A stretch of 64,000 bases of DNA from an uncultured Gammaproteobacteria bacterium (GTDB taxonomy: Bacteria; Pseudomonadota; Gammaproteobacteria; CAZDOC01), in contig CAZDOC010000002.1 of assembly GCA_964506945.1 (NCBI GenBank), positions 42,834 through 106,833 of the forward strand. Reading direction: 5' to 3'. Positions 26,368 to 50,802 of the stretch are shown in pieces. How positions within the stretch are numbered: position 1 is the first letter of the stretch; each line of letters starts with the position of its first letter. Under the pieces are notes generated by a model, which saw only the letters and a program-made list of their open reading frames with translations, was not told the DNA's origin and ran no database searches. Made by a program: the position numbers and the translations under genes.

Positions 26368-26458
26368 ACAGGGCCCCCGGGTCGATCGAGGCGGGCAAGG
26401 CGGCGCGTTAACGGATACACTTTCAGCAGTCATGCGTTCACGGGAAGCGAACCGGCCG

Positions 26459-32566: not shown

Positions 32567-32568
32567 GC

Positions 32569-32913
32569 ATGCGCGGGATCGCCCTGGCACTGCTTTTCTT
32601 GCTGCCGGGCGGGCAGGTGGCGGCGCTGGAAACCGGACTGCAGGATCCGACCCGGCCCTATGCCTGGCAGGAGGTCAGGCCGGTGGTGGAGATCCCGCGT
32701 GAGGTGATGGAATGGCGGGTCACCGCGGTGCGCATCGGCGAGCACGGCCGCAGCGCCATCGTCAACGGCCTGCTGGTGCATGTGGGCGACGGTCTGGGCG
32801 AGGCCAGGGTGGTGGCCATCTCGGCCAGTGAGGTGGTACTGGATTACCAGGGTGAGCGGATCCGGGTCGGGCTGTTGCGACCGGTGATCAAACGGTTGAG
32901 TGAGCGCAAGTGA
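32569..32913 (+). CDS. mshK: MshK (PilP-like) small periplasmic pilus assembly protein.
   Basis: Signal peptide MRGIALALLFLLPGGQVAA. Small beta-rich protein immediately upstream of the secretin. Confidence 0.6.
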   Translation: MRGIALALLFLLPGGQVAALETGLQDPTRPYAWQEVRPVVEIPREVMEWRVTAVRIGEHGRSAIVNGLLVHVGDGLGEARVVAISASEVVLDYQGERIRVGLLRPVIKRLSERK

Positions 32914-32949: not shown

Positions 32950-34719
32950 ATGATGAATGATATCGGCATCGGAACACCGGGGCGCTGGATGTTGCTGGCG
33001 GGATGCGTGCTCTTGAGCACCGGCTGTGACCACGGCCTGACTCGCAAGGCCACCCTGGACACCATCGATCAGGCCGTGGCCGAGGCAGCCGCCACCAACA
33101 GGGAGCAGGAGGCGATACCGCGGGACGTGGCCGATGCCCTGTTGCCGACGATCGAGCTGGACAAGGACAAGACGCCCGTCAGCAAGGACAGGCAGTACTT
33201 CGACATCTCCGTCAACGACGTGCCGGCGCAGCAGTTCTTCATGAGCCTGGTGGATGGCACGGACTACAACATGGTCGTCCATCCCGAGGTGCGGGGGCGG
33301 ATCACCCTGAACCTGAAAAAGGTCACCATTCCGCAGGTGATGGAGGCCGTACGCGATGTCTATGGCTATGAATTCGTGCAGACCCGATACGGTTTCCAGG
33401 TCCTGCCCAGTCGCCTGTCGGCGCGTATCTACCAGATCAATTACCTCAACGTGAAACGTTCCGGCAGTTCCTCTACCTTCGTCAGCTCCGGGGCCCTGAC
33501 CTCGGGCCCGAACGCCCCCCTGACCGGTCAGACCTCGGCTCAGAACTCCTCCACCAACACCCAGGGCACGACCCGCCGCAATGTCGTCGGCACCCAGATC
33601 AGCACCGAGCAGCTGGGGGTCTCGTTCTGGAATGAACTGCGCACCTCCATCTCGGCCATCATCGGCAATGGCGAGGGTCGCAGCGTGGTGGTCAATCCCC
33701 AGTCCGGGGTGGTGGTGGTGCGTGCCATCCCCAACGAGCAGCGCGAGGTGGAGACCTATCTGCGCGCCACCCAGCTGATCGTCGAGCGTCAGGTGATCCT
33801 GGAGGCCAAGATCATCGAAGTGGAACTCAAGGACGGCTACCAGTCCGGCATCAACTGGGCCGCGCTCAAGGGAGAGTTCACCGCCGCCCATGTGGGTGGT
33901 GGTTCGATCCTGGTGAACGAATCCGGGACCAGCGACATCGCCGGGCAGGCCGGCGCCACCCTGCGTCCGGGCGGGACGCCGGCGCTGGACGGTACGCTCA
34001 GCTCGGCCTTTGGCGGGGTCTTCTCCCTGGCCGTGAATGCGAACAATTTCGCCGCCTTCGTGGAACTGCTGAAGACCCAGGGCAATGTCCAGGTGCTGTC
34101 CAGCCCCAGGGTCTCCACGATGAACAACCAGAAGGCCCTGATCAAGGTCGGCTCGGACGAGTTCTTCGTCACCGATGTGTCCACCACCACGGTGACCGGT
34201 ACCAGTACCACGTCGACGCCGAACGTGGAACTGACGCCGTTCTTCTCCGGCATCGCCCTGGACGTGACCCCGCAGATCAGCCAGGACGGCGAGGTCACGC
34301 TCCATATCCATCCGTCGGTCAGCAAGGTGGTGGATCAGCAGAAGAACATCACCGTCGGCGGCATCAGTCAGCAGTTGCCGCTGGCGCGCAGCACGGTGCG
34401 TGAATCCGACAGCATCGTGCGCGCGCGTTCCGGCCAGATCATCGTCATCGGCGGCCTGATGCAGGACCGCACCGATGACCAGGACGCCCAGACCCCGTTG
34501 CTGGGGGACCTGCCGCTGCTCGGGGGCCTGTTCAAGCATCAGAAACAGTCCTCGCAGAAGAGCGAGCTGGTGATCCTGCTGCGGCCGCTGGTGGTCTCGG
34601 GCGCGGACGACTGGACGCGTGAGCTGGCGCAATCGCAACAGCGCCTGGGGGAGATGCGCCAGGTGTTGCAGCGGCGTGACGACGAGTCCGCCCGCTTCAC
34701 GCGCCGGGTGGCCGAATGA
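32950..34719 (+). CDS. mshL: MshL secretin (GspD/PilQ family).
   Basis: Secretin C-domain: NQKALIKVGSDEFFVT...IVIGGLMQDRTDDQDAQTPLLGDLPLLGGLFKHQKQSSQKSELVILLRPLVV. Confidence 0.9.
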   Translation: MMNDIGIGTPGRWMLLAGCVLLSTGCDHGLTRKATLDTIDQAVAEAAATNREQEAIPRDVADALLPTIELDKDKTPVSKDRQYFDISVNDVPAQQFFMSLVDGTDYNMVVHPEVRGRITLNLKKVTIPQVMEAVRDVYGYEFVQTRYGFQVLPSRLSARIYQINYLNVKRSGSSSTFVSSGALTSGPNAPLTGQTSAQNSSTNTQGTTRRNVVGTQISTEQLGVSFWNELRTSISAIIGNGEGRSVVVNPQSGVVVVRAIPNEQREVETYLRATQLIVERQVILEAKIIEVELKDGYQSGINWAALKGEFTAAHVGGGSILVNESGTSDIAGQAGATLRPGGTPALDGTLSSAFGGVFSLAVNANNFAAFVELLKTQGNVQVLSSPRVSTMNNQKALIKVGSDEFFVTDVSTTTVTGTSTTSTPNVELTPFFSGIALDVTPQISQDGEVTLHIHPSVSKVVDQQKNITVGGISQQLPLARSTVRESDSIVRARSGQIIVIGGLMQDRTDDQDAQTPLLGDLPLLGGLFKHQKQSSQKSELVILLRPLVVSGADDWTRELAQSQQRLGEMRQVLQRRDDESARFTRRVAE

Positions 34720-34795: not shown

Positions 34796-35740
34796 ATGTA
34801 CACAAAACACTTCGGTCTGACGGAGATGCCGTTCACGCTGACACCGGACACCAGTTTCTTCATGAACCGTTCCGGTTACCAGGACGCGCTGAATGTACTG
34901 CTGGTGGCCTTGCGCAGCGGTGAGGGCTTCATCAAGGTCACCGGCGAGGTGGGAACCGGCAAGACCCTGCTGTGTCGCAAGCTGCTGAAGACACTGGGCA
35001 CGGAGTACATGACCGTCTATATCCCCAATCCCTATCTGAAACCGGCGACGCTGTTCCTGACCATCGCCGAGGAATTGGGGGTGGCCTGTGAAGCCGGCAT
35101 GGACCAGCATTTCGTGCTCCGCGAGATCACCCGTGCGCTGGTGCGTTTCCATCTCAGGGGACGGCCGGTGGTGATCTGCCTGGACGAGGTCCAGGCCATG
35201 CCGCTGGAGACCCTGGAGACCCTCAGGCTGCTGACCAACCTGGAGACCGAGAAGACCAAGCTGATCCAGGTGGTGCTGTTTGCCCAGCCGGAACTGAATT
35301 TCCTCCTCGAGAGCCCCTCGATCCGCCAGTTGCGCCAGCGCATCACCTTCTCCTACGAGCTGTTGCCACTGAATCGCGCCGGGCTGGCGAGCTATGTGCG
35401 TCATCGCCTGGCGGTGGCCAACTACGACGGTCGAGACCTGTTCAGCCGCAAGGCCCTGGACCTGTTGTACCGGGGCAGTGGCGGGATCCCCCGGCTGGTC
35501 AACATCCTGGCCAACAAGGCCCTGATCTGCGCCTTTGGCCGGGGTGATATCGAGATCCGGGCGCGTCATGTACGCGAGGCCCTGGCCGACAGCAGCGAGG
35601 CGCGCGACTGGAAGACGCCGCGGGGCCATCGTTGGCTGCAGCTGTGGCGCGTGCTGAGCGGCGCCGGCGGCGCCGCGGCGATGGTCGCGCTGTTGTCGCT
35701 GGCCGGGGTCCGTGAGACGCTGGCGGCCCTGTTCAGATGA
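34796..35740 (+). CDS. mshM: MshM (ExeA-like AAA ATPase).
   Basis: Walker A GEVGTGKT. ExeA/MshM-type N-terminus HFGLTEMPFTLTPDTSFF. Confidence 0.85.
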   Translation: MYTKHFGLTEMPFTLTPDTSFFMNRSGYQDALNVLLVALRSGEGFIKVTGEVGTGKTLLCRKLLKTLGTEYMTVYIPNPYLKPATLFLTIAEELGVACEAGMDQHFVLREITRALVRFHLRGRPVVICLDEVQAMPLETLETLRLLTNLETEKTKLIQVVLFAQPELNFLLESPSIRQLRQRITFSYELLPLNRAGLASYVRHRLAVANYDGRDLFSRKALDLLYRGSGGIPRLVNILANKALICAFGRGDIEIRARHVREALADSSEARDWKTPRGHRWLQLWRVLSGAGGAAAMVALLSLAGVRETLAALFR

Positions 35741-36996
35741 GCCTGATCAACAACATGCTGCAGGATCTGGAACACCGCCGCGGCGGCCGGCCCTTGCAGG
35801 GACATCAGATCCTGTCTGGTCTCGACGCCGTGGGCATGGGCGCGCAGCATGAGGGTCACTGGCGGCAGGCCCGGCCGCTGGCGATCATGAGCCTGGGACT
35901 GGCCATGCTGGCGCTGGCATGGCTGGTGATCCAGGGGCGCCCGGGATGGGCCGGCCGCTGGCCCGCGCCCGCGCCGGCAGCACCGGTGACGGAGGAACGC
36001 GCGCCGGCCACCCCGGCCGTCGAAAGACCCGGTCCGCAGGTCGGTCGGCGGGGGCGGACGCAGGCCTTCGGCGAGACCGCCGGTCCGCACCGGGCCGGGG
36101 CCACGCCGGCGGCGCGCACCAGCCAGGTCATGGTGGTGAATGACCCCGGCGTGAGCGTGCCGGTGTGGTTCGGACCGGTCGCGGCGGCGGGCGCCGAAGC
36201 GGCGGCCGTGACCACGCCCCGGCCAGCGCGGGTCATGGGCGAAAACGGCGACGGCGCCCCGGTGTCGGTGCGGGACGCGGCCAGGGCGCCCACGTCACCC
36301 CGGTCCGCCATCGCGGCCACACCCGAAGCTCATGCCACGATCCGCTCACAGGGCGCCAGCGGCGGTGGTGACGCGTCTGCCGATGCGGGCGGCTTCCACC
36401 GTGAGTCCGCCCGCGGGGATGGATCCGCGGTCTCGCCCCTGAGCCGGGCGCGGGCGCGCCTGGCCAGTGGCCAGGTCGCCGCGGCCCTGGCGGGTTTCCG
36501 GGAGGTACTGAGGCAGGCGCCGGACAACACCGATGCCCGCATCGAGCTGGCGGGTGTCCTGGTACGCATGGGCCGTGCCGACGCCGCCCTGCGGGTGCTG
36601 GAAGCGGGTCTGGAAGTGGCTCCCGGGGCCTGGTCGCTGGCACTGTCCGGGGCGCGGATCCTGGTCTCGCACGCCGAGGCCGGGCGGGCGGCGCGCCTGC
36701 TGGAGGCGCATCGGCCGGCGCTGGCGGAGGCGCCGGAATACTATGCCTACATGGCTGGCCTGGCGCAGCGTCAGGGGGATGACGAGCAGGCCATATCACT
36801 CTATCGCATGCTCACCGCCCGGGATGGCGCCCGGGGGGTCTGGTGGATGGGGCTGGCGATCTCGCTCAAGCGCGAGAACCGGCTGCGGGAATCATTGCGG
36901 GCTTTCCAGCGCGCCTATGCGGACACCGGCCTGTCGGACAATCTGCGCCGCTATATCGGTTCGCAGATAGCCGGTCTGCGGCGGGAACGCGGCTGA
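35737..36996 (+). CDS. mshN: MshN (TPR-repeat protein).
   Basis: N-terminal transmembrane segment, Ala/Pro-rich linker, C-terminal TPR repeats. It sits between mshM and mshE. Confidence 0.7.
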   Translation: MSLINNMLQDLEHRRGGRPLQGHQILSGLDAVGMGAQHEGHWRQARPLAIMSLGLAMLALAWLVIQGRPGWAGRWPAPAPAAPVTEERAPATPAVERPGPQVGRRGRTQAFGETAGPHRAGATPAARTSQVMVVNDPGVSVPVWFGPVAAAGAEAAAVTTPRPARVMGENGDGAPVSVRDAARAPTSPRSAIAATPEAHATIRSQGASGGGDASADAGGFHRESARGDGSAVSPLSRARARLASGQVAAALAGFREVLRQAPDNTDARIELAGVLVRMGRADAALRVLEAGLEVAPGAWSLALSGARILVSHAEAGRAARLLEAHRPALAEAPEYYAYMAGLAQRQGDDEQAISLYRMLTARDGARGVWWMGLAISLKRENRLRESLRAFQRAYADTGLSDNLRRYIGSQIAGLRRERG

Positions 36997-38744
36997 TGCC
37001 CTCGCGCAGGAAGATACGCCTCGGCGATCTGCTGGTGGAGAACGGCATGATCACCGCCGCGCAGCTGGAGCAGGCCCTGGCGGATCAGAAGAAATCCGGG
37101 CGCAAGCTGGGTCGCATCCTGATCGAAAATGCCTACATCGCCGAGGACGATTTGCTGAAGTTCCTGTCTCAGCAGCTGAAGGTCCCCTTCATAGACCTGG
37201 TGCATTACCAGTTCGATGCCGAGGTGGTGCGGCAGTTGCCGGAGATCTATGCGCGGCGTTTTCGCGCGGTGGCCCTCAAGCGCCTGGACGACGGCCTGCT
37301 GATCGGGATGTCGGATCCGACCAATATCTTCGCCTACGATGAACTCGGGCGGATCCTGAAACAGGATATCAAGCTCGCGGTGGTGCGCGAGAGCGAGTTG
37401 CTCAAGACCATCGACCTGGTCTATCGCCGCACCGAGGAGATCAGCGATTTCGCCGAGCAGCTGAGTGACGAACTGGGCGAGACGGACATCGATATCGAGG
37501 ATCTGCTGTCCGGGGCCGATGTCGCCGATGCCCCGGTCGTCAAGCTATTGCAGTCGCTGTTCGAAGACGCCTTGCAGGTCGGCGCCTCGGACATCCACCT
37601 GGAACCGGACGAGAACGTGTTGCGCATACGCCAGCGTGTCGATGGCATCCTGCAGGAACACGTGATGGACGAAAAGCGCATCATGCCGGCGCTGGTGTTG
37701 CGCCTGAAATTGATGGCGAGCCTGGATATCTCCGAGAAGCGCCTGCCGCAGGACGGGCGCTTCAGCCTCAAGGTCAAGCAGCACAGCATCGACGTGCGCA
37801 TGTCCACCATGCCCGTGCAGCATGGTGAATCCGTGGTCCTGAGGCTGCTGGATCAGAGCGCCGGGATACTGGATCTGGAACAGCTCGGCATGGCGGAGGC
37901 CCTGCGCCTGCGCTTCGAGGGCATGGTCAGGCGGCCGCATGGCATGGTCCTGGTCACCGGCCCCACGGGTAGCGGCAAGACCACCACGCTGTATAGCACG
38001 CTCAAGATCCTGAACCGGCCCGAGGTCAAGATCATCACCGTCGAGGATCCGGTCGAATACCGCCTGCCGCGAGTCAATCAGGTGCAGGTGAAACCCGATA
38101 TCGACCTGACCTTCGCGCGCGTGCTGCGTTCCTCACTGCGCCAGGATCCGGATATCGTGCTGATCGGCGAGATGCGCGACGAGGAGACGGTGGATATCGG
38201 TCTGCGCGCGGCCATGACCGGACATATGGTGTTGTCCACCCTGCATACGAATGATGCGATCGCCACCGTGAACCGACTGCTGGACATGGGCGCCCCCGGT
38301 TACCTGCTGGCCTCCTCGCTGCATTCCATACTCGCCCAGCGGCTGATCCGGCGTATCTGCGAGAGCTGCAAGATGGCCGGTGAAGCGGACAAGCAGGAAC
38401 GGGCCTGGCTGGCGCGCAACGCCGATGCCGAGTCCATGCGGCAAGACTACTATCGCGGCAGTGGTTGCAGTCATTGCAACAATACCGGTTACCGCGGTCG
38501 TATCGGGGTATATGAACTGCTGGAGATCGACGAAGCCATGGCCCTGGCCCTGAGTCGCAGTGACACCGCGGCATTCGTCGAACATGCCGAGCATGCCAGG
38601 GGCTACCGCCGCCTGGACCTGGTGGCGCTGGATTATGCCCGTGCCGGGGTGACCTCGCTGGAGGAGGTGCTGCGGGTCTCCGCGGACAGTGGTGACGTGA
38701 CCGTGGCCGCCATCCGCCACCGCGCCGAGGGCGCCGGGACCTAG
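36996..38744 (+). CDS. mshE: MshE extension ATPase (GspE family) with an N-terminal c-di-GMP-binding MshEN domain.
   Basis: Two MshEN repeats (RLGDLLVENGMITAAQLEQALADQ and KLGRILIENAYIAEDDLLKFLSQQ). Walker A GPTGSGKTTT. Tetracysteine CESC...CSHC. The ATG overlaps the mshN TGA. Confidence 0.9.
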   Translation: MPSRRKIRLGDLLVENGMITAAQLEQALADQKKSGRKLGRILIENAYIAEDDLLKFLSQQLKVPFIDLVHYQFDAEVVRQLPEIYARRFRAVALKRLDDGLLIGMSDPTNIFAYDELGRILKQDIKLAVVRESELLKTIDLVYRRTEEISDFAEQLSDELGETDIDIEDLLSGADVADAPVVKLLQSLFEDALQVGASDIHLEPDENVLRIRQRVDGILQEHVMDEKRIMPALVLRLKLMASLDISEKRLPQDGRFSLKVKQHSIDVRMSTMPVQHGESVVLRLLDQSAGILDLEQLGMAEALRLRFEGMVRRPHGMVLVTGPTGSGKTTTLYSTLKILNRPEVKIITVEDPVEYRLPRVNQVQVKPDIDLTFARVLRSSLRQDPDIVLIGEMRDEETVDIGLRAAMTGHMVLSTLHTNDAIATVNRLLDMGAPGYLLASSLHSILAQRLIRRICESCKMAGEADKQERAWLARNADAESMRQDYYRGSGCSHCNNTGYRGRIGVYELLEIDEAMALALSRSDTAAFVEHAEHARGYRRLDLVALDYARAGVTSLEEVLRVSADSGDVTVAAIRHRAEGAGT

Positions 38745-38746
38745 TC

Positions 38747-39973
38747 GTGGCGCGTTATCGCTACAGCGGCAGGAAGGGCGACGGCGAGGCGGTCGATGGC
38801 GTGCTGGAGGCGGTCTCCACCGACGCGGTGCTGGTGCAACTGGAGGGCTTCGGCATCATCCCGCTGGAGATCGACCGGGTCGGGGGTGAGGACGACACCG
38901 GCAACGCGCCGGTCAGCCTGTTCAGGAAGCGGCCGGACCTGACCGAACTGATCCTGTTCACCCGGCAGATGTACAGCCTGATGCATGCCGGGGTGCCGAT
39001 AAACCGCGCCATGATCGTCCTGATCCGCTCCAGCCGCAACCCGATCCTGATCGAGGCGCTGAAGGAGATCCACGCCCAGCTCGAATCGGGGCGGGAGCTT
39101 TCCAGCGCGATGTCGCTGTATCCCGGTATCTTTCCCAGTCTTTATGTCAGCATGGTGCGGGTGGGCGAGAACACCGGCCGTCTGGATGAGGCCCTGATGC
39201 GCGTCGCCGGTTATCTGGAGCGGGAAAAGGATACCCGGCAGAAGGTCAAGTCGGCGCTGCGCTACCCCTCGTTCGTGCTCATCGCCATCGCCGCCGCGGT
39301 GACCATATTGAATATCTTCGTGATCCCGGCCTTCAAGACCATCTTCGAGCGCGCGCACACGCAACTGCCGCTGCCGACCCGGATCCTGATCGGTACCTCG
39401 GACTTCTTCGTCGACTACTGGGCCGGGATGCTGGTGGTCGTGGTGCTGGCGGTCATCGGCGCGCGCTGGTACGTCGCCACCGAGCGGGGGCGCTATCGAT
39501 GGGATCGTTACAAGCTGCGCATCCCCATCGCCGGCAACATCATCGAGCGCGCGGTGCTGGGCCGCTTCGCGCGCGCCTTTGCGATGGCGACCTCGGCGGG
39601 CGTGCCCCTGTTGCAGACACTTGCGGTTTTGTCGAAAGCGGTCGATAACGAGTACATCGGTGGACATATAGCGGACATGCGCCACGGCATCGAACGGGGC
39701 GACACCCTGACCCGCACCGCCGTGGCCACCGGCATGTTTTCACCCCTGGTGATCCAGATGCTCAGTATCGGCGAGGAGACCGGGGCGGTGGATGACCTGA
39801 TGGTCGAGGTGGCGGATTTCTATGAACGCGAGGTGGACTACGACGTCAGGAATCTGAGTACCGCGATCGAGCCGATCATGATCACGGTGATCGCGGTGAT
39901 GGTGTTGATCCTGGCCCTGGGTATCTTCCTGCCGATGTGGGACCTGGCCAGCATCAGTTTCCGGCACGGCTAG
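38747..39973 (+). CDS. mshG: MshG platform protein (GspF/PilC family).
   Basis: The 408-aa product has a duplicated GspF-domain architecture with three transmembrane segments and follows mshE. Confidence 0.88.
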   Translation: MARYRYSGRKGDGEAVDGVLEAVSTDAVLVQLEGFGIIPLEIDRVGGEDDTGNAPVSLFRKRPDLTELILFTRQMYSLMHAGVPINRAMIVLIRSSRNPILIEALKEIHAQLESGRELSSAMSLYPGIFPSLYVSMVRVGENTGRLDEALMRVAGYLEREKDTRQKVKSALRYPSFVLIAIAAAVTILNIFVIPAFKTIFERAHTQLPLPTRILIGTSDFFVDYWAGMLVVVVLAVIGARWYVATERGRYRWDRYKLRIPIAGNIIERAVLGRFARAFAMATSAGVPLLQTLAVLSKAVDNEYIGGHIADMRHGIERGDTLTRTAVATGMFSPLVIQMLSIGEETGAVDDLMVEVADFYEREVDYDVRNLSTAIEPIMITVIAVMVLILALGIFLPMWDLASISFRHG

Positions 39974-40164: not shown

Positions 40165-40689
40165 ATGGCGGGTCTGAATCGCAACCTGTCGCGACTGGAA
40201 CTGGCCTTGATGATCATGGTGATCGCCCTGCTGGTCGCGATGGCCATCAACCGGACCTCGGTGTTGTTCGTGGAGGCGGAGCGGCTGTCCGTGGACATGA
40301 CCCTGAACAGCCTGCGCAACGGCATCACCTACTACACGGCCGAGAGGATGATGCTGGGGCAGATGCGGCAACTGGCGCAGCTGGATGGGGCCAATCCGGT
40401 GGGCCTGGTGATCGTGGCGCCCAAGGGCTATCGTGGGGCGATCAACCCGGGCCAGGGCCAGAAGTTCGAGCCGGGGGACTGGTATTTCGACAAGGACCGT
40501 GGCGTGCTGGTGTACCGGGTGGTCAACCCCGAGCGCCTGTGGAGCGAGGACGGGGACAGCAGCAGGCTGGAGTTCAGGCTCAAACTGGATTACAGGGATC
40601 GGAACGGCAACGGCCGGTATGACCCGGGGATCGACAGTATCATCGGCCTCAGGCTCGTGACCCTGCATCCCTACCGCTGGGAGATCTGA
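40165..40689 (+). CDS. MshF-like protein (putative).
   Basis: The 174-aa product has an N-terminal hydrophobic helix (LELALMIMVIALLVAMAI) but no canonical G/FTLIE prepilin motif. It sits between mshG and the major pilin gene, where mshF lies in Vibrio. Confidence 0.45.
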   Translation: MAGLNRNLSRLELALMIMVIALLVAMAINRTSVLFVEAERLSVDMTLNSLRNGITYYTAERMMLGQMRQLAQLDGANPVGLVIVAPKGYRGAINPGQGQKFEPGDWYFDKDRGVLVYRVVNPERLWSEDGDSSRLEFRLKLDYRDRNGNGRYDPGIDSIIGLRLVTLHPYRWEI

Positions 40690-40735
40690 GGCGGTTTCGC
40701 AATCGACAGTGTGACAATACAAGAGGTGCAAGACA

Positions 40736-41181
40736 TGAACGGCAAGCAGCAAGGTTTCACCCTCATAGAACTGGTACTGGTGATCACCATCCTCGGTATC
40801 CTGGCGGCCTTCGCCATCCCGCGTTTCGCCGGCATCGAGACCCAGGCGCGCATCTCGGTGATGCAGGGCGTGGCCGGCTCACTGGAGGCGGCCGCGGCCC
40901 TGGCCCATGCCAAGCAGCTGGCGCAGGGGGTCTCCGCCGGTGGAAATATTTCTATGGAAGGCATCACCATCAATATGGTCAATGGCTATCCCAGTGCCGC
41001 AGACATTGACAAGGCAATACGTACAGGGAGCAATTCCAAAATACTTTCCAATAGTGCGGGAACATTTAATTATAGTGGTTTCCTAAGTTGTTCGGTGCAA
41101 TACACAGAGGCTCCGGCCACCCCGGCCGGCTCACCACCAACAATCATAACGACGAATCTGACAACAGCGAATTGTGAATAA
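40736..41181 (+). CDS. mshA: MSHA major pilin (type IVa prepilin, MshA/MshB-like).
   Basis: Prepilin leader MNGKQQG|FTLIELVLVITILGILAAFAIP with Glu5. C-terminal disulfide loop C...C. The 3' half of the gene is low-GC and the tail is Ser/Thr/Pro/Ala-rich (TEAPATPAGSPPTIITTNLTTANCE). Confidence 0.85.
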
Positions 41182-41201
41182 CAACAACAAATAACACCCA
41201 T

Positions 41202-41228
41202 GAGGCTGCGATTGCAGCCTCTTTTTTA
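41202..41228 (+). terminator. Rho-independent terminator after the major pilin gene.
   Basis: GAGGCTGC-GATT-GCAGCCTC stem-loop followed by TTTTTT, 21 nt past the pilin TAA. Confidence 0.75.
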
Positions 41229-41298
41229 TACGCCTGCGCCTGGGTGTGCCGGTGCAAGGCGATCCGGCGGTTTTCCGGCCGTGAAGGAGACCGGATAC

Positions 41299-43239
41299 TT
41301 GGCATCGACACGCACATCCCCGGCCCTGGCCCTGCCGGCCGTGGCCCTGGCCCTGGCGCTGTGGTACCAGGGGTTCACCCTGCTGCCGGTATGCGCGGTG
41401 CTGGCCGTGCTGCTGCTGGGCCTGCTGGTCGGCCCTGGCCGGCGGCACCGGCGCTGGACCTGGCCACGGCCCGATGCCCTTGTCATCAGCCTGTCCCTGT
41501 TGCTCGTCTGGAGCGCCTGGATCACCCTGAGCGGTCCCGGCCGCCTGCTGGCCCAGTATGGCCTGCTGGTCTGCGGTGTGTTCGCCAGCGCGCTGCTCTG
41601 CGCCCTGCTGGCCTCCCGGCAGCGGGCCTGGTGGCCGCTGATGGTGCCGGTGTCGCTCGTCGTGCTGGCCGAGGCCCTCTACGGCGGCTGGCAGTTCCTC
41701 GCTGGCCAGGGTCCGCCACGGGGGCTGTTCGTGCAGCCGAACACCCATGCCGGCTGGTTGCTGCTGTTCAACCTGCCCCTGACGGCCCTGGCCGCGTGGC
41801 TGCGGCGGTATCGCAGGCGCAGCTGGCCGTGGGTGCTGGCCGGGCTGGCCCTGCTGGACCTGAATATCGCCGCCTCGCTGAGCCGTGGCGTGGCCCTGGC
41901 GCTGTCGGCGGGGCTGCTGGTCCTTGGCGTGAGTCTTCCGCCAGGCTGTCGACGCGGCCTGTTGATCCCCGTGGTGCTGGTGATCAGCGCCTACGGTCTG
42001 GTCGATGTCCTGGACGCCGGCCGGGTGGCCGGGCGCATGGACAGCGGCCTGGCGAGCGTGGGCCGCCTGCTGCTGGATAGCCAGGAGGATGGATCCCCGG
42101 CGACGGGGCAGGGGGATTCCATCCGCGCGCGCGTGCTGATCTGGCGGGGGGCCTGGCGTATGTGGCGGGAGACCCCCTGGCAGGGCTGGGGCCTGTACCG
42201 CTTCCGGCTGATCTATCCCCGCTTCCAGTCCGATGCGGATCAGAGTGCCGGGCAATATGCCCACAACGAGCTGCTGCAATTGTTACTGGAGATCGGTCTA
42301 CCGGGCCTGTTGCTGGTGCTGTTGAGCATGGTCCTGGTTGCCAGGCGGGGCTGGAAGCGTCTGCATGGCCCCGGCATGGACGAGGCCCGGCGTTGTGAGA
42401 TCGCCGGTCTGCTGGCGGCGATGGCGGCGATCTCCGTACACAGCCTGCTGTCCTATGATTTCCATATCCTGCCGGTGCTGCTGGTCGTGGGGCTGATCAC
42501 GGGGCGTTACCTGGACCGGGTCAGCATGGAGGCATCGGTTTCTGAGCGCATGACCGTGACGGGGGGGCGGCCCGGCCGCCGGCCGGCCCGGATCCTGTTG
42601 CTGGCGATCCTGCTGGCGCTGGCGCTACCCGCCGGCATGGCCTGGTATATGGGCCAGGCTCGGGCGGCCCTGGCCCGGGGCGATCTGGCCGCGGCCGAGC
42701 AGGCCCTGGGGCGGGCGGCCATGCTCGATGATACCGACGAGATCGCCCATGCGCGCGCCTTGACCTATATCGAGGCACTGAAGGCCCTGCCCGGGCGGGA
42801 TGAGAGACGCCCCAGGCTGTTCCAGTGGGCCATGGACAGCCTGGATGCGGCCGCGCGCATGAACCCGGAACTGGCCGCGGTGCCCTGCGCCCGCGGACTG
42901 TTGTTCGCCAGGGCCCCGGGGCTGGCCGGGCGGGATGCCTACCGGCGTGCGGAGGATGCATTTCGTCAGGGCCTGCGCCTGGCACCGAGACAGTATCTGT
43001 GCCGCCTGCACTATGCCCGCCTGCTGTTGCGGCTCGGACGCAAGCCACAAGCGCGTACCCTGCTGGAGGCCGGCCTGCCCGCCGGTCTGCCGGATGCTGC
43101 CGGGATCATCCCCTATGTGCAGCTGTTGATCCGCCTGCGCCGTGACATGGGGCAAGCCGCCGCCGCGGAGCGCCTGGCCCGGCGCCTGCTGAACTTGCGC
43201 GGGCACTGGCGTAACATAGGCGCCGGTACGCGGATATGA
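41299..43239 (+). CDS. O-antigen ligase family (Wzy_C) protein with a C-terminal TPR region: a putative pilin O-oligosaccharyltransferase (PglL/TfpO-like).
   Basis: Ten or more transmembrane helices. Wzy_C signatures SLSRGVALAL and the periplasmic loop YAHNELLQLLLEIGLPGLL. The C-terminal roughly 200 aa are Ala/Arg/Leu-rich and TPR-like. It lies immediately downstream of the pilin gene, the same arrangement as P. aeruginosa pilA-tfpO. The start is set at the TTG at 41299, which follows a GAAGGAGA Shine-Dalgarno sequence. The track's ATG at 41200 lies inside the terminator. Confidence 0.7.
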   Translation: MASTRTSPALALPAVALALALWYQGFTLLPVCAVLAVLLLGLLVGPGRRHRRWTWPRPDALVISLSLLLVWSAWITLSGPGRLLAQYGLLVCGVFASALLCALLASRQRAWWPLMVPVSLVVLAEALYGGWQFLAGQGPPRGLFVQPNTHAGWLLLFNLPLTALAAWLRRYRRRSWPWVLAGLALLDLNIAASLSRGVALALSAGLLVLGVSLPPGCRRGLLIPVVLVISAYGLVDVLDAGRVAGRMDSGLASVGRLLLDSQEDGSPATGQGDSIRARVLIWRGAWRMWRETPWQGWGLYRFRLIYPRFQSDADQSAGQYAHNELLQLLLEIGLPGLLLVLLSMVLVARRGWKRLHGPGMDEARRCEIAGLLAAMAAISVHSLLSYDFHILPVLLVVGLITGRYLDRVSMEASVSERMTVTGGRPGRRPARILLLAILLALALPAGMAWYMGQARAALARGDLAAAEQALGRAAMLDDTDEIAHARALTYIEALKALPGRDERRPRLFQWAMDSLDAAARMNPELAAVPCARGLLFARAPGLAGRDAYRRAEDAFRQGLRLAPRQYLCRLHYARLLLRLGRKPQARTLLEAGLPAGLPDAAGIIPYVQLLIRLRRDMGQAAAAERLARRLLNLRGHWRNIGAGTRI

Positions 43240-43262
43240 GATGGACGAAGCGATTGCATACG

Positions 43263-43751
43263 ATGACTCGATCACGGATCCCGGGCTTTACCCTGGTGGA
43301 ACTGGTCAGCGTGATCGTGGTGCTCGGCATCATGGCCGCGTTCATCGCCCCGCGCTTTTTCCAGCGTGATGCCTTCGAGGAGATGGGCTTCGCCGCGCAG
43401 GCCCTCTCGGCCATCCATTATGCGCAGAAACTGGCCCTGGCCTCCGGTTGCGACATGCGGGTGGCGATCTCCTCCGGCGGCCTGCGGGTGGATCGTTTCG
43501 GCAGCGCCGACTGCCGCGCCAATCCGGGCGCGGCGCTGATCGGCATGAAGCGCTTTGGGGGCGGTTCCCTGGCGCTGCCGCTGCCGGACGGGATCAGCGT
43601 CACCACCGTCAGTTTCTACTTCGACAAGATCGGTCGTCCACATGATGCCGCCGGCAGCTTCGGCGCCCTGCTGGGTGCGCCCCTGGACATCGCCGTCGGC
43701 AGCCACGACCTGAGGGTGGAGCCCGAAACGGGCTACACGCACAGCCTGTGA
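43263..43751 (+). CDS. mshC: MshC-like minor pilin.
   Basis: Prepilin motif MTRSRIPG|FTLVELVSVIVVLGIMAAF. The track ORF starts in-frame upstream at 43236. Confidence 0.7.
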   Translation: MTRSRIPGFTLVELVSVIVVLGIMAAFIAPRFFQRDAFEEMGFAAQALSAIHYAQKLALASGCDMRVAISSGGLRVDRFGSADCRANPGAALIGMKRFGGGSLALPLPDGISVTTVSFYFDKIGRPHDAAGSFGALLGAPLDIAVGSHDLRVEPETGYTHSL

Positions 43752-44272
43752 GGAGATGCCGCCGCGAGCATGGCCTGACCCTGATCGAGCTGGTCATCTC
43801 CCTGGTCATCCTGGCCATCGCCTCGGTGGCGATCCTGCGGGTGCTGTCGGACGCCAACAGACGCAGCGCCGATCCCATGATCCAGCAGCAGGCCAGCGCC
43901 ATCGCCCAGGCCTATCTGGAGGAGGTGTTGCTCAAGCCCTATTGTGACCCGGACCTCAGCACCGACTGTGCGAGCACCTGCGCGGTCGCCAACATCTGCG
44001 CCACACCCGCCTGCAGCAGTCCCGAGGCCGGGCGCACGGCCTTCGACGAGGTCTGCGACTACGACGGCCTCGTCGACAGCGGCGCGCGTAACCAGCTCGA
44101 CCAGGCCATCCCCGCGCTGGCGGATTACACCGTCACGGTGCGGGTCGACGACAGCGGGGTCGATATCAACGGCCTCTCGGCCGATGCGGGCCAGGCCCTG
44201 CGCATCACCGTGAGCGTGGACCACCCGGCCATGGCGCCCATCAGCCTGTCGGCCTACCGGACGAATTTCTGA
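43748..44272 (+). CDS. mshD: MshD-like minor pilin.
   Basis: Prepilin motif HG|LTLIELVISLVILAIASVAIL, with a Cys-rich C-terminal region. Confidence 0.7.
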   Translation: MRRCRREHGLTLIELVISLVILAIASVAILRVLSDANRRSADPMIQQQASAIAQAYLEEVLLKPYCDPDLSTDCASTCAVANICATPACSSPEAGRTAFDEVCDYDGLVDSGARNQLDQAIPALADYTVTVRVDDSGVDINGLSADAGQALRITVSVDHPAMAPISLSAYRTNF

Positions 44273-45117
44273 TGCGCGATGCCACGGGCTTCACCCTGAT
44301 AGAGATGGTCTCGGTGATCGTGATCACCGGCATCCTGGCGACCGTGGTGGGCATGAACATCTCGCGGCCGATCCAGGGCTATCTGGATACCGCGCGGCGG
44401 GCCGAACTGGTGGACAAGGCGGAGACCGCACTCAACCGCATGACCCGCGAGATCCGCCTGGCCCTGCCGAACAGCATCCGTGTCTCAGGTGGCTCGATGG
44501 AGTTCCTGCGCAGCCTGAGCGGTGGCCGTTATCGCGCCCGCCCGGATCCCGGCGGCGGCAGTGACGAACTCGATTTTGCCGCCGATGCCGATAGCTTCGA
44601 TGTCCTCGGTGGCATGCCCAGTCTGCTGAACATCATCGCCGGCGCCGGCGGACGCGCCGATTGCCTGAGCGGCGTCAGCGATTGCCTGGTGATCTTCAAC
44701 ACCGGCCAGCCCGGTGCGGATGCCTATCGGGGCGACAATATCGCCGGTATCTCCCTGGTCGACAAGGGTCCGCCGGTGGTCCGGCTCAGCTTCGACAACT
44801 CCGATGTTCCCGGCTGGCACTTCCCGTTCGCCTCTCCGCGCCAGCGTTTCTATGTCGTCGATACCCCGGTCAGCTTCGTCTGCGACCTGGCGAGCGGTCG
44901 CATCACCCGGCATGCACAATACCCGATCAGCGCGGTACAAAACCCGGCCCCGGCCGGTAACGGCAGCCTGCTGGTGGACAGGGTCAGCGCCTGTTCCTTC
45001 AGCTACAGTCCCGGCAGCGCGACCCGCGACGGTCTGGTGACCCTGGCGCTGAGCATTACCGACAGTGGCGAGAGCGTGCACCTGCTGCAGCAGGTGCACA
45101 TACCCAACCAGCCATGA
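44272..45117 (+). CDS. mshO: MshO-like minor pilin.
   Basis: Prepilin motif MRDATG|FTLIEMVSVIVITGILATVV. The 281-aa product is in the size range expected of MshO. Confidence 0.7.
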   Translation: MRDATGFTLIEMVSVIVITGILATVVGMNISRPIQGYLDTARRAELVDKAETALNRMTREIRLALPNSIRVSGGSMEFLRSLSGGRYRARPDPGGGSDELDFAADADSFDVLGGMPSLLNIIAGAGGRADCLSGVSDCLVIFNTGQPGADAYRGDNIAGISLVDKGPPVVRLSFDNSDVPGWHFPFASPRQRFYVVDTPVSFVCDLASGRITRHAQYPISAVQNPAPAGNGSLLVDRVSACSFSYSPGSATRDGLVTLALSITDSGESVHLLQQVHIPNQP

Positions 45118-45542
45118 AGCGTGATGCCGACATTGCCGGCTTCTCCCTGGTGACAGCGCTGTTCCTGCTGGTGATCCTGGCCGCGCTGGGGGTGTTCGTG
45201 ATCACCATAGGCAGCACCCAGCAGGCCACCTCGACCCTGTCCATCCTGGATGCCAGGGCCATGGCCGCCGCCGAGAGCGGCCTGGAGTGGGCCGTGCATC
45301 GGGCCAGGAACCAGCCGGCGGACCTGGGCTGTGGCGGCGCCGGGGCCACCTTCAATCTGCAGGGTCCCGGGCTGGATGGTTTCAGTGTCGGCATCAGCTG
45401 CGTGGTCACGCCCAATATCGTCGAGGGCGCCGCGCCGCCGTACTCGATGTATGCCCTGACCGTGACCGCCAGCCGCGGCGTGACGGGCAGCCCCGACTAT
45501 GTCCGGCGTATCCTGCAGGCCACGGTCACGGACGCGCCCTAG
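45114..45542 (+). CDS. mshP: MshP-like (PilX-like) minor pilin.
   Basis: MKRDADIAG|FSLVTALFLLVILAALGVFVI, the last gene of the cluster. Confidence 0.65.
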   Translation: MKRDADIAGFSLVTALFLLVILAALGVFVITIGSTQQATSTLSILDARAMAAAESGLEWAVHRARNQPADLGCGGAGATFNLQGPGLDGFSVGISCVVTPNIVEGAAPPYSMYALTVTASRGVTGSPDYVRRILQATVTDAP

Positions 45543-45549
45543 GGCGCGA

Positions 45550-45981
45550 CTAGCGACGGGCGCCCAGGCCCATGGCCAGCAGGCCGAACAGCAGCGTTCT
45601 TGCCCTGGCTCGCCGGGTGCGGGCCTGTCCCCGGTGCAGATCCCGGCGACTGATCAGCTTGTCCAGCAGGCGCTCGCTGGCGGGGAAGGCGGCCAGTCCT
45701 GCAGGGTTACCGGTATTCAGCCAGTTGGCATAGGGATCCCGCCGGTCGGCGCCATCACCCGGGTTGGGAAAATAGTCCCGGCGCGAGTAGGCCACGGTCC
45801 GCGCTGGCGGATCCGGGATCCAGGCCGGGGCCCGATCCGGCGCGGGCGGCTGGCGCAGCATCGACGCAGGCAGCAGGTAGGCGCTGTTCGGGCCGGGCGC
45901 GGAGCCGTAACATTCATCGGCCAGGGCGCTGGCCGTGATCCCCAGTAGTAACAGACAACTCAAAACGATGTTCATGGTCAA
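45550..45981 (-). CDS. Hypothetical secreted protein.
   Basis: The 143-aa product has a signal peptide (MTMNIVLSCLLLLGITASALA), a Pro/Asp/Arg-rich body and a C-terminal hydrophobic stretch followed by Arg-Arg (TLLFGLLAMGLGARR). No family recognised. Confidence 0.45.
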   Translation of the reverse strand: MTMNIVLSCLLLLGITASALADECYGSAPGPNSAYLLPASMLRQPPAPDRAPAWIPDPPARTVAYSRRDYFPNPGDGADRRDPYANWLNTGNPAGLAAFPASERLLDKLISRRDLHRGQARTRRARARTLLFGLLAMGLGARR

Positions 45982-48506: not shown

Positions 48507-48678
48507 TGCTCAGGGGCAGGGCGGGGACAGATGGGTAAATCTTCCTGTCCGGGGCGGGAATACCCTCCTTCGTTGACACGGTTTGCCGGTGATATAAAGG
48601 CATTCTCCATGTGGTATCGGGATCCCGGCCCGGATGGACCGGGGTATGGGTGTTGTCAACGCGTGCCGGGCAGGGATG

Positions 48679-50802
48679 ATGGAACGCTCTCAGGTGGCAG
48701 ACAGCGGTTTGTGGGCACTGTGCCTGGTGGCGCGGTATCATGGGGTGGCGGTCGACCCGGCTGCGCTGGCGCAGCGTTTCCGTACTGCTGAGGGCCTCGA
48801 CGAGGCGGCGATCCTGCGTGCGGGGCGCAGCCTGGGGCTGAAATGCCGGGCCTGCACCCTGTCGGAAGCCCGCATGAGGAAGGCCCCATTGCCGGTGATC
48901 GCCGCTCTGCGTGGCGGCGGTTTTGTACTGATCCTGAGACTCGCCGGGGATGACCTGCTGGTTCAGCGGGGGGAGGATGTGGCCCCCGCGCGCCTGGCCT
49001 GGGTGGATTTTGGTCGTGAATGGAACGGGCGACTGATCCTGATCACCCGGCGTCACGGGCTGGAAACCGCGGCGCGACGCTTCGGCTGGCGCTGGTTTGT
49101 GCCCTTCATCCTCAAGTACCGGGCCTATCTCCTGGAGGTGTTGCTGGCCTCCTTCATGCTGCAGCTTTTCGCCCTGGTCACGCCGTTGTTCTTTCAGGTG
49201 GTGATCGACAAGGTATTGGTGCACAAGGGTCTGACCACGCTGGACGTACTCGCCGGCGGCCTGCTGGTGGTGTCGCTGTTCGATGCGCTGCTGGCTGGCT
49301 TGCGCGGCTATGTCTTCAGCCACACCAGCAACCGCATCGACGTGGCCCTGGGCGCGGCCTTGTTCCGTCACCTGCTGCGCTTGCCGATCGCCTATTTCGA
49401 GCATCGGCGGGTCGGCGACACGGTCGCCCGGGTGCGCGAACTGGAGACCCTGCGCCAGTTCCTCACCGGTTCCTCCCTGACCTTGCTGGTGGATGTGAGC
49501 TTTACCCTGGTGTTCTTCGCGGTGATGTATCTGTACAGCCCCCGGCTGACGCTCGTCGTGGCCGGGGTCCTGCCGGTGTATGTCTTGCTGGCGGTGTCGG
49601 TGACGCCGGCGTTGCGCGCGCGCCTGAATGAGAAATTCGATCGCGGCGCGGATTCCCAGGCCTTCCTGGTGGAGACCGTCGCCGGGATCGAGACCCTCAA
49701 GGCCAGCGCGGTGGAGGCCGGTGCCGGACAACGCTGGGAGGAACGCCTGGCGGCCTATGTCGCGGCCGGGTTCCGGGCCGGTAACCTGGCCAATATCGCG
49801 GGCCAGTGCGCGCAGTTGATCAACAAGCTGATGACCCTGCTGATCCTCTGGCTGGGGGCGCGCCTGGCCATCGATGGCGCGATCACGGTGGGTCAGCTGG
49901 TGGCCTTCAATATGCTCGCCGGACGGGTGGCCGGGCCGATCCTGCGCCTGTCGCAGTTATGGCAGGACCTTCAGCAGGCCGGCATCTCCCTGGCCCGGCT
50001 GGGCGATATCCTCGACGCCGCGCCCGAGCCCGGTTTCCGTCCCGGTCATATCGCCCTGACCGAGGCGCCGGGCGCGGTGGTCTTCGAGCGGGTCGTGTTC
50101 CGTTATCGCAGCGATGGGCCCGAGGTTCTGCGGGGTATCGATCTGCGGGTGGCCCAGGGGGAGGTGATCGGTATCGTCGGGCGGTCCGGGTCGGGCAAGA
50201 GCACACTGGCGAAACTGATCCAGGGGCTCCATGTCCCGTGCAGCGGCCGGGTGCTGATCAACGGCGTGGACCTGGCCCAGCTCGACAGCAGCTGGCTGCG
50301 CAGCCGCCTGGGCGTGGTGCTGCAGGACAGCCGGCTGTTCAATCGCACGGTACGCGAGAATATCGCCCTGGCCGATCCCGGCCTGCCGATGGCGCGGGTG
50401 ATCCAGGCCGCGCGCATGGCCGGGGCGCACGATTTCATCCTCGATCTGGCGCAGGGCTACGACACGGTCATCGGCGAATATGGCGCCGCTCTCTCCGGGG
50501 GGCAGCGGCAGCGGATCGCCATCGCCAGGGCCTTGATCACGGATCCCTCGATCCTGATCTTCGATGAGGCCAGCAGCGCCCTGGACTATGAGTCGGAATA
50601 TGCCCTGCAGCGGAACATGCGGTATATCTGCAAGGGTCGCACGGTGTTCCTGATCGCCCATCGCCTGTCCACGCTGCGCCATGCCGATCGCATCATCGTG
50701 CTGGACCAGGGCCGGGTGGTGGAGCAGGGCGATCACTCGGACCTGCTGGCCCGGGCCGGGTATTACGCGCGCTTGCACCGGCACCAGCTGGGCATGGCAT
50801 GA
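48679..50802 (+). CDS. Type I secretion system ABC transporter (HlyB family) with an N-terminal C39-like domain, a transmembrane domain and an ABC ATPase.
   Basis: N-terminus ADSGLWALCLVARYHGVAVDP parallels the HlyB C39-like domain ([20 protein letters not shown]). Six transmembrane helices. Walker A GRSGSGKST, ABC signature LSGGQRQRIAIARAL, Walker B ILIFDEASSALD. Start set at MMERSQ; the track ORF starts at 48634. Confidence 0.9.
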   Translation: MERSQVADSGLWALCLVARYHGVAVDPAALAQRFRTAEGLDEAAILRAGRSLGLKCRACTLSEARMRKAPLPVIAALRGGGFVLILRLAGDDLLVQRGEDVAPARLAWVDFGREWNGRLILITRRHGLETAARRFGWRWFVPFILKYRAYLLEVLLASFMLQLFALVTPLFFQVVIDKVLVHKGLTTLDVLAGGLLVVSLFDALLAGLRGYVFSHTSNRIDVALGAALFRHLLRLPIAYFEHRRVGDTVARVRELETLRQFLTGSSLTLLVDVSFTLVFFAVMYLYSPRLTLVVAGVLPVYVLLAVSVTPALRARLNEKFDRGADSQAFLVETVAGIETLKASAVEAGAGQRWEERLAAYVAAGFRAGNLANIAGQCAQLINKLMTLLILWLGARLAIDGAITVGQLVAFNMLAGRVAGPILRLSQLWQDLQQAGISLARLGDILDAAPEPGFRPGHIALTEAPGAVVFERVVFRYRSDGPEVLRGIDLRVAQGEVIGIVGRSGSGKSTLAKLIQGLHVPCSGRVLINGVDLAQLDSSWLRSRLGVVLQDSRLFNRTVRENIALADPGLPMARVIQAARMAGAHDFILDLAQGYDTVIGEYGAALSGGQRQRIAIARALITDPSILIFDEASSALDYESEYALQRNMRYICKGRTVFLIAHRLSTLRHADRIIVLDQGRVVEQGDHSDLLARAGYYARLHRHQLGMA

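Follow-up and report, generated by a model that had tools for sequence, protein, structure and literature searches.

A candidate pilin-directed O-oligosaccharyltransferase of Wzy_C-TPR architecture, encoded between the major pilin and the minor pilins in an MSHA-type pilus locus

We analyzed a 64,000-nucleotide stretch of DNA (the window; contig CAZDOC010000002.1 of assembly GCA_964506945.1) from an uncultured gammaproteobacterium, which carries a mannose-sensitive hemagglutinin (MSHA)-type type IV pilus locus. A gene lying between the major pilin gene and the minor pilin genes of this locus (the ligase gene; Table 1) encodes a polytopic membrane protein that joins a Wzy_C module to a C-terminal tetratricopeptide repeat (TPR) domain. 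A preliminary description of the window had placed an O-antigen-ligase-like gene at this position and had predicted that it glycosylates the pilin; the position is borne out by the Pfam gene set and the coordinates. Judging from domain content, fold, conserved catalytic residues, positive-inside topology, gene layout and conserved synteny, the product is probably an O-oligosaccharyltransferase that is directed at the pilin, binds its acceptor through the TPR module and serves the MSHA-type pilus. The earlier observation is thus confirmed, and its functional interpretation appears plausible, with backing from comparison of related loci.

Fold, catalytic residues and topology of the Wzy_C-TPR protein

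The product matches Pfam Wzy_C (PF04932) with 73.5 bits over residues 183 to 341 (cut-off 31.7) and TPR_19 with 25.3 bits over residues 546 to 599 (cut-off 25). The motifs SLSRG and YAHNELLQLLLEIGLPG, cited earlier as hallmarks of Wzy_C, are both present in it. A public gene call (P0001) agrees with the product in length (646 residues) and in sequence, and the start of a 68%-identical homologue (P0002) aligns with its own. An ATG at 41200, from which the reading frame is also open, was rejected as the start because it lies inside a terminator hairpin, whereas a good ribosome-binding site precedes the TTG at 41299, which also agrees with the public call.

Two AlphaFold models were built. The first covered the full protein and used an alignment of five sequences. 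Its membrane part came out poorly (pLDDT 63) but its tail confidently, as a high-pLDDT TPR superhelix for which Foldseek returned TPR proteins only, e.g., MamA (TMt 0.75) and PilF (2ho1). The second, an AF2 model of residues 1 to 460 from a 91-sequence alignment, reached a pLDDT of 81.8 and a pTM of 0.83. Its only match among 350,542 solved chains is the O-antigen ligase WaaL of Cupriavidus metallidurans (CmWaaL; 7tpg_B; Foldseek E of 3.4e-6, TM 0.56/0.63, 440 columns). A single-sequence search of the PDB with the ligase gave nothing useful, and profiles were needed: the family profile finds 7TPG by sequence (E of 5.9e-16), with SRG, RxLIW and HND aligned to GTRGA, VRLKIW and HAHND.

Residues R215, R288 and H338 of E. 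coli WaaL and R224, R298 and H349 of the O-oligosaccharyltransferase PglL are functionally important (PMC3643930). Alignment to 7TPG and to the motifs of a PglL-type protein (P0072) makes R196, R278 and H322 the counterparts of this Arg/Arg/His triad in the window protein. Alignments of members 19 to 70% identical to the window protein show R278, H322, N323, G296 and G298 without exception and R196 and N148 in at least 90% of sequences. The periplasmic His/Arg residues by which the preliminary description proposed to judge the enzyme are therefore present and conserved. The protein is accordingly a Wzy_C enzyme whose catalytic triad is intact and whose fold, as modeled, is of the WaaL type.

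The short loops assigned to the cytoplasm contain 29 Arg and Lys residues and the short periplasmic loops contain 3. By the positive-inside rule, this distribution places the N terminus in the cytoplasm and both the catalytic loop and the TPR domain in the periplasm, the location that had been suggested for the catalytic loop. The tail, previously called TPR-like, is indeed present and is more than that: the family's C-terminal profile matches consensus TPR proteins and the TPR domain of O-GlcNAc transferase (OGT) with E values of 1e-47 to 1e-16, which makes it a canonical TPR array. This canonical periplasmic TPR domain is the most distinctive feature of the ligase.

Linkage to MSHA loci and the neighboring major pilin

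With exhaustive HMMER searching at E ≤ 1e-30, the family numbers 544 clusters (50% identity); about 135 of the best 150 comprise proteins of 580 to 700 residues that align with the profile over the membrane part as well as the TPR part, and the rest are shorter fragments. A word-index protein search, with 8 hits, gave four relatives only and missed most members. Family members are labeled “O-antigen ligase” in their source annotations, and distant relatives weakly match the PEP_O_lig_1 or IctB models. No NCBIfam model covers the Wzy_C-TPR family, PglL-architecture proteins or E. coli WaaL, so that NCBIfam does not discriminate among them.

The genomic context of the relatives (loci with L numbers) was collected from protein look-ups, one genome scan and one metagenome scan. 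Thirteen of the 16 evaluable closest relatives (27 to 68% identity) lie in loci with MshE, MshG and pilin genes, in answer to the synteny search proposed earlier; the homologue in L009, from the cultivable Halorhodospira neutriphila DSM 15116, is located at a contig edge. The order found in the window, major pilin gene, ligase gene and, where the contig extends, minor pilin genes, recurs in L001, L003, L004 (Thiotrichaceae), L005 (Acidiferrobacterales), L049, L053 and L054, and the pilin-then-ligase order also occurs among more distant matches (L085 and L103). Elsewhere the ligase gene is found about 1 kb 3′ of a pilin-like gene (L007, Halofilum), upstream of mshE (L050 and L051), between minP and mshQ (L052), divergent from the pilin gene (L010, Ectothiorhodospiraceae, and L055) or in two copies beside mshE/G (L008). 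In a cruder count of 119 loci, 15 of 28 matches that cover the TPR part were pilus linked versus 8 of 91 that cover the Wzy_C core only (odds ratio, 12; Fisher P = 1.6e-6), figures that show a trend and are no formal test, as the loci are related, metagenomic and phylogenetically non-independent. The recurrence of pilus linkage in independent, divergent relatives, many of them from uncultured bacteria, appears to be more than chance, and because it survives changes of position and orientation it makes the best case that gene and pilus are functionally linked. It is also stronger evidence for a pilin-directed role than any offered in the preliminary description.

Two arrangements among these loci deserve mention on their own. 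Tandem Wzy_C-TPR paralogues are present in metagenome-assembled genomes (MAGs) of Acidiferrobacterales (L005, 7571 to 9580 and 9653 to 11638) and Ectothiorhodospiraceae (L008, 7362 to 9359 and 9542 to 11488); the two copies might serve two glycans or two acceptors. In L056 (1236 to 5793), a homologue lies directly 3′ of pyrD, with gpsA, spoU and pyrD as neighbors and no MSHA genes. The same three housekeeping genes flank the MSHA island of the window. This could reflect loss of the island, or its insertion around a gene already in place; alternatively, stand-alone enzymes also belong to the family.

Divergence from the closest locus, L001, is uneven. The pilins are 70% identical and the ligases 67 to 69%, while the minor pilins share 82 to 89% and pyrD/spoU 88 to 89%. 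Since pilin and ligase diverge together and their neighbors are far more conserved, the pair fits a pilin-plus-modifier cassette, and the low third-codon-position GC content (GC3) of the pilin gene, 0.62 versus 0.80 to 0.90 across neighboring genes, fits it as well. The 3′ half of the pilin gene has about 47% GC in a region of 65 to 70% GC. The GC content of the pilin gene and the divergence of pilin and ligase from L001, much faster than that of flanking genes, suggest that the pilin/ligase pair has undergone horizontal exchange or diversifying selection.

The terminator that had been reported between pilin and ligase genes was recovered. It folds with −15.9 kcal/mol (z = −3.9), and none of 200 shuffled sequences folds equally well; a terminator-like hairpin with a T-run follows the pilin gene in 7 of 10 other pilin-then-ligase loci (L001, L004, L005, L049, L053, L054 and L103). 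No promoter-like site was found between the terminator and the ligase gene. At its other end, the stop codon of the ligase gene overlaps the start codon of the first minor pilin gene (ATGA, 43236 to 43239), so that the ligase and minor pilins are predicted to form one translationally coupled unit. Taken together, the terminator, the lack of a promoter-like site in the intervening sequence and the ATGA coupling suggest that the enzyme would be expressed at a low level, together with the minor pilins, by read-through of the terminator.

The major pilin has the leader MNGKQQG followed by FTLIE, and its gene starts at an ATG at 40735; the earlier pilin call holds, with its start (40736) one position off. 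Its best match among solved structures is MshA of Shewanella oneidensis (9lab_B; E of 9.7e-13). The C terminus of the pilin reads CSVQYTEAPATPAGSPPTIITTNLTTANCE, with TTANCE as the final residues, and Cys112 and Cys140 of the mature protein enclose a loop rich in Ser, Thr, Pro and Ala. This loop had been compared to the sequons favored by PglL-type enzymes, and we downgraded it as a PglL/PglS-type sequon: S. oneidensis MshA carries a comparable loop (NCFLTYTEAKAANTSTNP), and a C-x-(V/L)-x-Y-T-E-A... Ser/Thr-rich loop is shared by the window pilin, S. oneidensis MshA and most pilins adjoining ligase homologues. Most pilins beside ligase homologues end at or just after the last Cys; a few have a terminal Thr or Ser beyond it (L007, 8602 to 9075, ...AIATST; L103, 6899 to 7222, ...GLCT). 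The acceptor rule within the Wzy_C-TPR family may differ between members.

Relation to known enzyme classes and rival explanations

The window protein shares features with several pilin-modifying enzymes and is a member of none of PglL, TfpO, TfpM, PglS and TfpW. With PglL it has in common the Wzy_C core with the Arg/Arg/His residues, an 18-residue spacing from Arg to GxG (R298 to G316 in PglL, R278 to G296 here), the Q-x-N and P-W-x-G-x-G motifs, the His that is H381 here, and a C-terminal periplasmic domain after the last helix. hhalign connects the family to the PglL-architecture protein P0072 over 313 columns (97.4% probability; E of 1.3e-11). Like the window gene, PglL homologues often adjoin a type IV pilin gene (21 of 31; PMC3643930), although their neighbors are T4a pilins and the pilin here is MSHA type. 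Of the PglL-specific residues Q178, N180, G316, G318, H400, E404 and P406 (PMC3643930), five are kept, as Q146, N148, G296, G298 and H381. E404, mutation of which strongly lowers PglL activity (PMC12800693), and P406 correspond to Ser385 and Asp387 in the window protein (Ser and Asp/Asn in the family), and the PglL sequence HSLLEYP reads HSLxSYNFY as a family motif. PglL_A (PF15864) had no match at E ≤ 0.01 in Pfam, and Wzy_C_2/PglL_B (PF11846) stayed below threshold (17.7 bits versus a cut-off of 28.5), whereas the PglL-architecture proteins P0066 and P0072 carry both; the window protein has the TPR array instead.

TfpO (PilO; Pseudomonas aeruginosa group I and Acinetobacter) and TfpM (Moraxellaceae), like PglS, are encoded beside their pilin (PMC9829042). 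Both lie directly 3′ of the major pilin gene on the same strand, and the window shows the TfpO-type placement, with the pilin stop at 41181 and the ligase start at 41299. They likewise have a Wzy_C catalytic domain with a conserved His and form strain-variable, dedicated pilin-plus-enzyme cassettes. Unlike the 646-residue window protein, whose pilin ends in Cys-Glu, they lack a TPR tail, measure 420 to 470 residues (440 to 470 for TfpO in Table 2 of that work) and modify a C-terminal Ser/Thr of the pilin (PMC9829042); the TfpM equivalog NF058641 of NCBIfam scored 15.6 bits versus a cut-off of 600. The earlier label of the protein as PglL/TfpO-like is consequently not upheld at the level of class, given the missing PglL_A match, the low Wzy_C_2 and TfpM scores, the NCE end of the pilin and the replaced E404 and P406.

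PglS of Acinetobacter baylyi is pilin specific and encoded beside its pilin-like acceptor, ComP; it has 13 transmembrane helices, the number predicted here, and a large C-terminal periplasmic domain. In PglS, as in PglL, that domain is Wzy_C_2, which follows the 13th helix in PglS (PMC12800693), rather than TPR, and no sequence similarity at the level of PglS was detected. The acceptor serine of ComP sits in a disulfide-flanked loop; the Cys-bounded Ser/Thr-rich loop of the window pilin recalls it but is a generic D-region, at most a putative acceptor site.

In architecture, the nearest analogue is TfpW from group IV of P. aeruginosa (Pa5196/PA7), a pilA-adjacent protein of 646 residues with a periplasmic C-terminal TPR domain, which is needed for pilin O-glycosylation (bioRxiv 10.1101/2020.04.19.049825). 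It shares with the window protein the location directly 3′ of the pilin gene, the cytoplasmic N terminus and the polytopic membrane part, yet its catalytic module is of the GT-C kind, ArnT/Emb-like, with a DDX motif and polyprenyl-phosphate-D-Araf as donor, in contrast to the Wzy_C/WaaL fold and R/R/H residues of the window protein. Neither Pfam nor Foldseek gave PMT/ArnT matches for the membrane module. The resemblance to TfpW is thus one of convergent domain architecture between catalytic modules that are not homologous.

The nearest competitor to a pilin-directed enzyme is a broad-spectrum, PglL-like (“general”) O-oligosaccharyltransferase with many periplasmic and membrane protein targets, encoded in a pilus locus since pilins are abundant, which we regard as unlikely. 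The hhalign link to P0072 and the five retained PglL residues would suit it, as would the close relatives found beside housekeeping genes and off pilus loci (L056, after pyrD, and L006) and the PglL of Vibrio cholerae, which is broad-spectrum and encoded near, yet outside, the msh operon (PMC6901666). The same V. cholerae gene (VC0393), just upstream of msh, is a caveat to the earlier statement that Vibrio MSHA loci have no such gene. Against a general enzyme, the ligase gene is embedded in the structural operon and predicted to be coupled to the minor pilins, its closest relatives favor MSHA-like loci (13 of 16), it co-diverges with the pilin, its product lacks the PglL_A and Wzy_C_2 motifs, and the TPR domain suggests a dedicated protein partner.

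Some of the evidence could instead point to lipid or polysaccharide, since WaaL of C. metallidurans (PDB 7TPG/7TPJ) is the only solved structure of the same fold, with aligning catalytic residues, the Wzy_C family spans ligases and polymerases, relatives carry the “O-antigen ligase” label and distant ones weakly match PEP_O_lig_1 or IctB. On that account the protein would be a WaaL-type O-antigen ligase or a Wzy-like polymerase that resides in the pilus locus by chance and leaves proteins unmodified. We consider this distinctly improbable, and a WaaL function is unlikely from gene context: lipopolysaccharide (LPS)-core, O-antigen, Wzx/Wzz and polysaccharide export genes were not found in the 64-kb window, where an LPS core cluster nearby had been named as a sign of a WaaL-type enzyme, and the linkage to MSHA genes is kept across divergent lineages at differing positions. 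WaaL moreover acts on lipid A-core and, at about 410 residues (413 in CmWaaL, 419 in E. coli WaaL), ends shortly past the membrane core, without the 13th helix and periplasmic TPR extension of the window protein; with E. coli WaaL, hhalign detected no similarity, so CmWaaL served as the reference. Least probable is that the protein serves mainly in the structure or assembly of the MSHA machine, as an inner-membrane-anchored TPR scaffold of the PilF/PilW type in which the Wzy_C module is catalytically irrelevant. The tail does resemble PilF (2ho1), one relative weakly matches a PilW model, and the variable position in the locus is as for an accessory subunit, but the Arg/Arg/His residues and surrounding motifs are invariant or nearly so among members of 19 to 70% identity, which argues that enzyme activity has been retained. 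The well-studied MSHA systems, those of Vibrio and Shewanella, are not known to require such a protein.

Several observations weigh against a pilin-directed O-oligosaccharyltransferase. The pilin lacks a C-terminal Ser/Thr, its Ser/Thr/Pro/Ala-rich loop appears generic for MshA pilins (because S. oneidensis MshA has one too), carries no specific sequon signal and is compatible with glycosylation rather than evidence of it, the equivalent of PglL E404 is Ser385, and the comparisons above place the enzyme outside PglL, TfpO and TfpM. About a fifth of the close relatives (L006, L056 and L057) lie away from pilus genes, so that the family is not strictly bound to pilin loci, and the synteny counts carry the non-independence stated with them. 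A pathway for the glycan donor does not lie within the window. The literature searched, with incomplete coverage, yielded no experimental glycan on any MSHA pilin and no description of a Wzy_C-plus-TPR pilin enzyme; a cryo-EM study of S. oneidensis MshA mentions no MshA glycosylation (PMC13334000), and glycosylation of V. cholerae MSHA has been speculated about, not found (PMC6901666).

If the protein does modify the pilin, we infer a donor, an acceptor residue, a role for the TPR domain and a pilin modification as follows. On the periplasmic side of the inner membrane, the Wzy_C module would bind a glycan carried on undecaprenyl pyrophosphate, the product of genes located elsewhere in the genome, with R196 and R278 contacting the pyrophosphate and H322 acting as the catalytic base. 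The glycan would then pass en bloc to a pilin Ser or Thr while the pilin is still anchored in the membrane, ahead of polymerization. The TPR domain, in the place taken by Wzy_C_2 in PglL and PglS, would bind the acceptor, be it the globular domain of the pilin or a component of the machinery that presents it, and low read-through expression would set the ratio of enzyme to pilin. It is tempting, though still tentative, to regard the Wzy_C-TPR family as a fifth O-oligosaccharyltransferase class beside PglL, PglS, TfpO and TfpM, dedicated to MSHA pilins and using TPR in place of Wzy_C_2 for acceptor recognition; such a class would have converged in architecture on TfpW, a GT-C enzyme to which it is unrelated.

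The MSHA-type locus, its surroundings and implications

The locus is complete by Pfam matches and gene layout, and its features are listed in Table 1. It comprises an MshEN-domain ATPase, MshM, MshN, the MshL secretin, MshG, four minor pilins, a DUF6701 MshQ-like protein and the MshA-like pilin. Assembly genes were called from Pfam matches (PilM_2, PilN, T2SSM, Secretin, etc.) and from tblastn synteny with L004, L054 and others.

Table 1. Features of the MSHA-type locus and of the Wzy_C-TPR gene (window positions)
Feature	Positions	Strand	Remarks
MshQ-like protein	26342-30001	+	1219 aa; Pfam DUF6701 376.7 bits, Laminin_G_3 78.3 bits
mshI	30314-31273	+	MSHA assembly gene
mshJ	31270-31902	+	MSHA assembly gene
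mshK-like	about 31892-32566	+	MSHA assembly gene
Small T2SSB-like gene	32551-32913	+	MSHA assembly block
mshL secretin	32950-34719	+	Pfam Secretin and Secretin_N_2
mshM	34796-35740	+	Pfam AAA_22
mshN (TPR)	35737-36996	+	Pfam TPR_19
mshE	about 36993-38744	+	Pfam T2SSE and MshEN
mshG	38747-39973	+	Pfam T2SSF
mshF-like	40165-40689	+	MSHA assembly gene
Major MshA-type prepilin	40735-41181	+	148 aa; N_methyl, Pfam 35.9 bits; ribosome-binding site GAGGTG 40723-40728
Intrinsic terminator 3′ of pilin gene	41202-41227	+	8-bp GC-rich stem, GAUU loop (41202-41221), T6 (41222-41227)
Ligase ribosome-binding site AAGGAG	41284-41289	+	9 nt before TTG start; read from sequence
Ligase gene	41299-43239	+	646 aa; TTG start
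Wzy_C membrane module, residues 1-449	41299-42645	+	13 predicted transmembrane helices; R196, R278, H322 (codon 42262-42264)
Periplasmic catalytic loop, residues 241-325	42019-42273	+	Predicted topology
C-terminal TPR domain, residues 450-646	42646-43239	+	Predicted periplasmic, after 13th transmembrane helix
Four minor pilin genes, mshC/D/O/P-like	43236-43751, 43748-44272, 44272-45117, 45114-45542	+	N_methyl and PilX_N matches

The order of the minor pilin genes is identical in L001, L004, L053 and L054. Compared with Vibrio, mshQ lies upstream of mshI and a single pilin gene stands in place of mshB and mshA. The Vibrio counterpart of the MshQ-like gene forms the end of the structural operon, and the position of mshQ is variable among related loci, at the downstream end in L052 and L053. 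The N-terminal half of the MshN-like gene (35737 to 36600) is of 75 to 79% GC, encodes a low-complexity sequence rich in Ala, Pro, Arg and Gly and contains long spurious open reading frames (ORFs) on both strands.

Housekeeping genes (proS, ilvBHC, leuA, pgm, secB, gpsA, pyrD and trkAH), an NtrY-like kinase and a C39-ABC/HlyD exporter make up the rest of the window. The exporter genes, located 3′ of the locus (48634 to 52139), form a bacteriocin or type I secretion pair and encode a C39-peptidase ABC exporter and a partner of the HlyD family. A 143-residue ORF on the minus strand (45550 to 45981), between the last minor pilin gene and spoU, has a signal-peptide-like N terminus and no Pfam or NCBIfam match; it is only 60% identical in L001 and thus evolves fast compared with its neighbors. 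A 540-residue membrane protein (16696 to 18318, minus strand) with a weak match to PMT_2 (GT-C, ArnT/PMT-like; 30.3 bits) is a further candidate lipid-linked-sugar transferase in the window, by position unrelated to the pilus locus. Near it are an S41 peptidase gene (19732 to 21042) and a divergent polysaccharide deacetylase gene (18898 to 19725), the latter separated from it by a DJ-1/PfpI gene. Finally, a 703-residue ORF on the plus strand (12993 to 15104) has good coding statistics and no Pfam match at E ≤ 1e-5.

Wzy_C O-oligosaccharyltransferases encoded next to pilins are a well-established theme, and the concept itself is unsurprising. What a fifth class would add is acceptor recognition by a TPR domain, a division of labor shared with eukaryotic OGT and TfpW, and this would make substrate selection testable in a modular system. 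O-oligosaccharyltransferases are tools of bioconjugate vaccine production, so that a new class with another acceptor rule would be of practical interest and would supply a new sequon/oligosaccharyltransferase pair for glycoengineering. For the organisms themselves, it would mean that the MSHA-type pili of sulfur-oxidizing and halophilic Gammaproteobacteria, pili of a type that functions in surface attachment and biofilm initiation, are glycoproteins. A whole branch of type IV pili would then bear glycans, with altered adhesion, recognition by phages and predators, and antigenicity.

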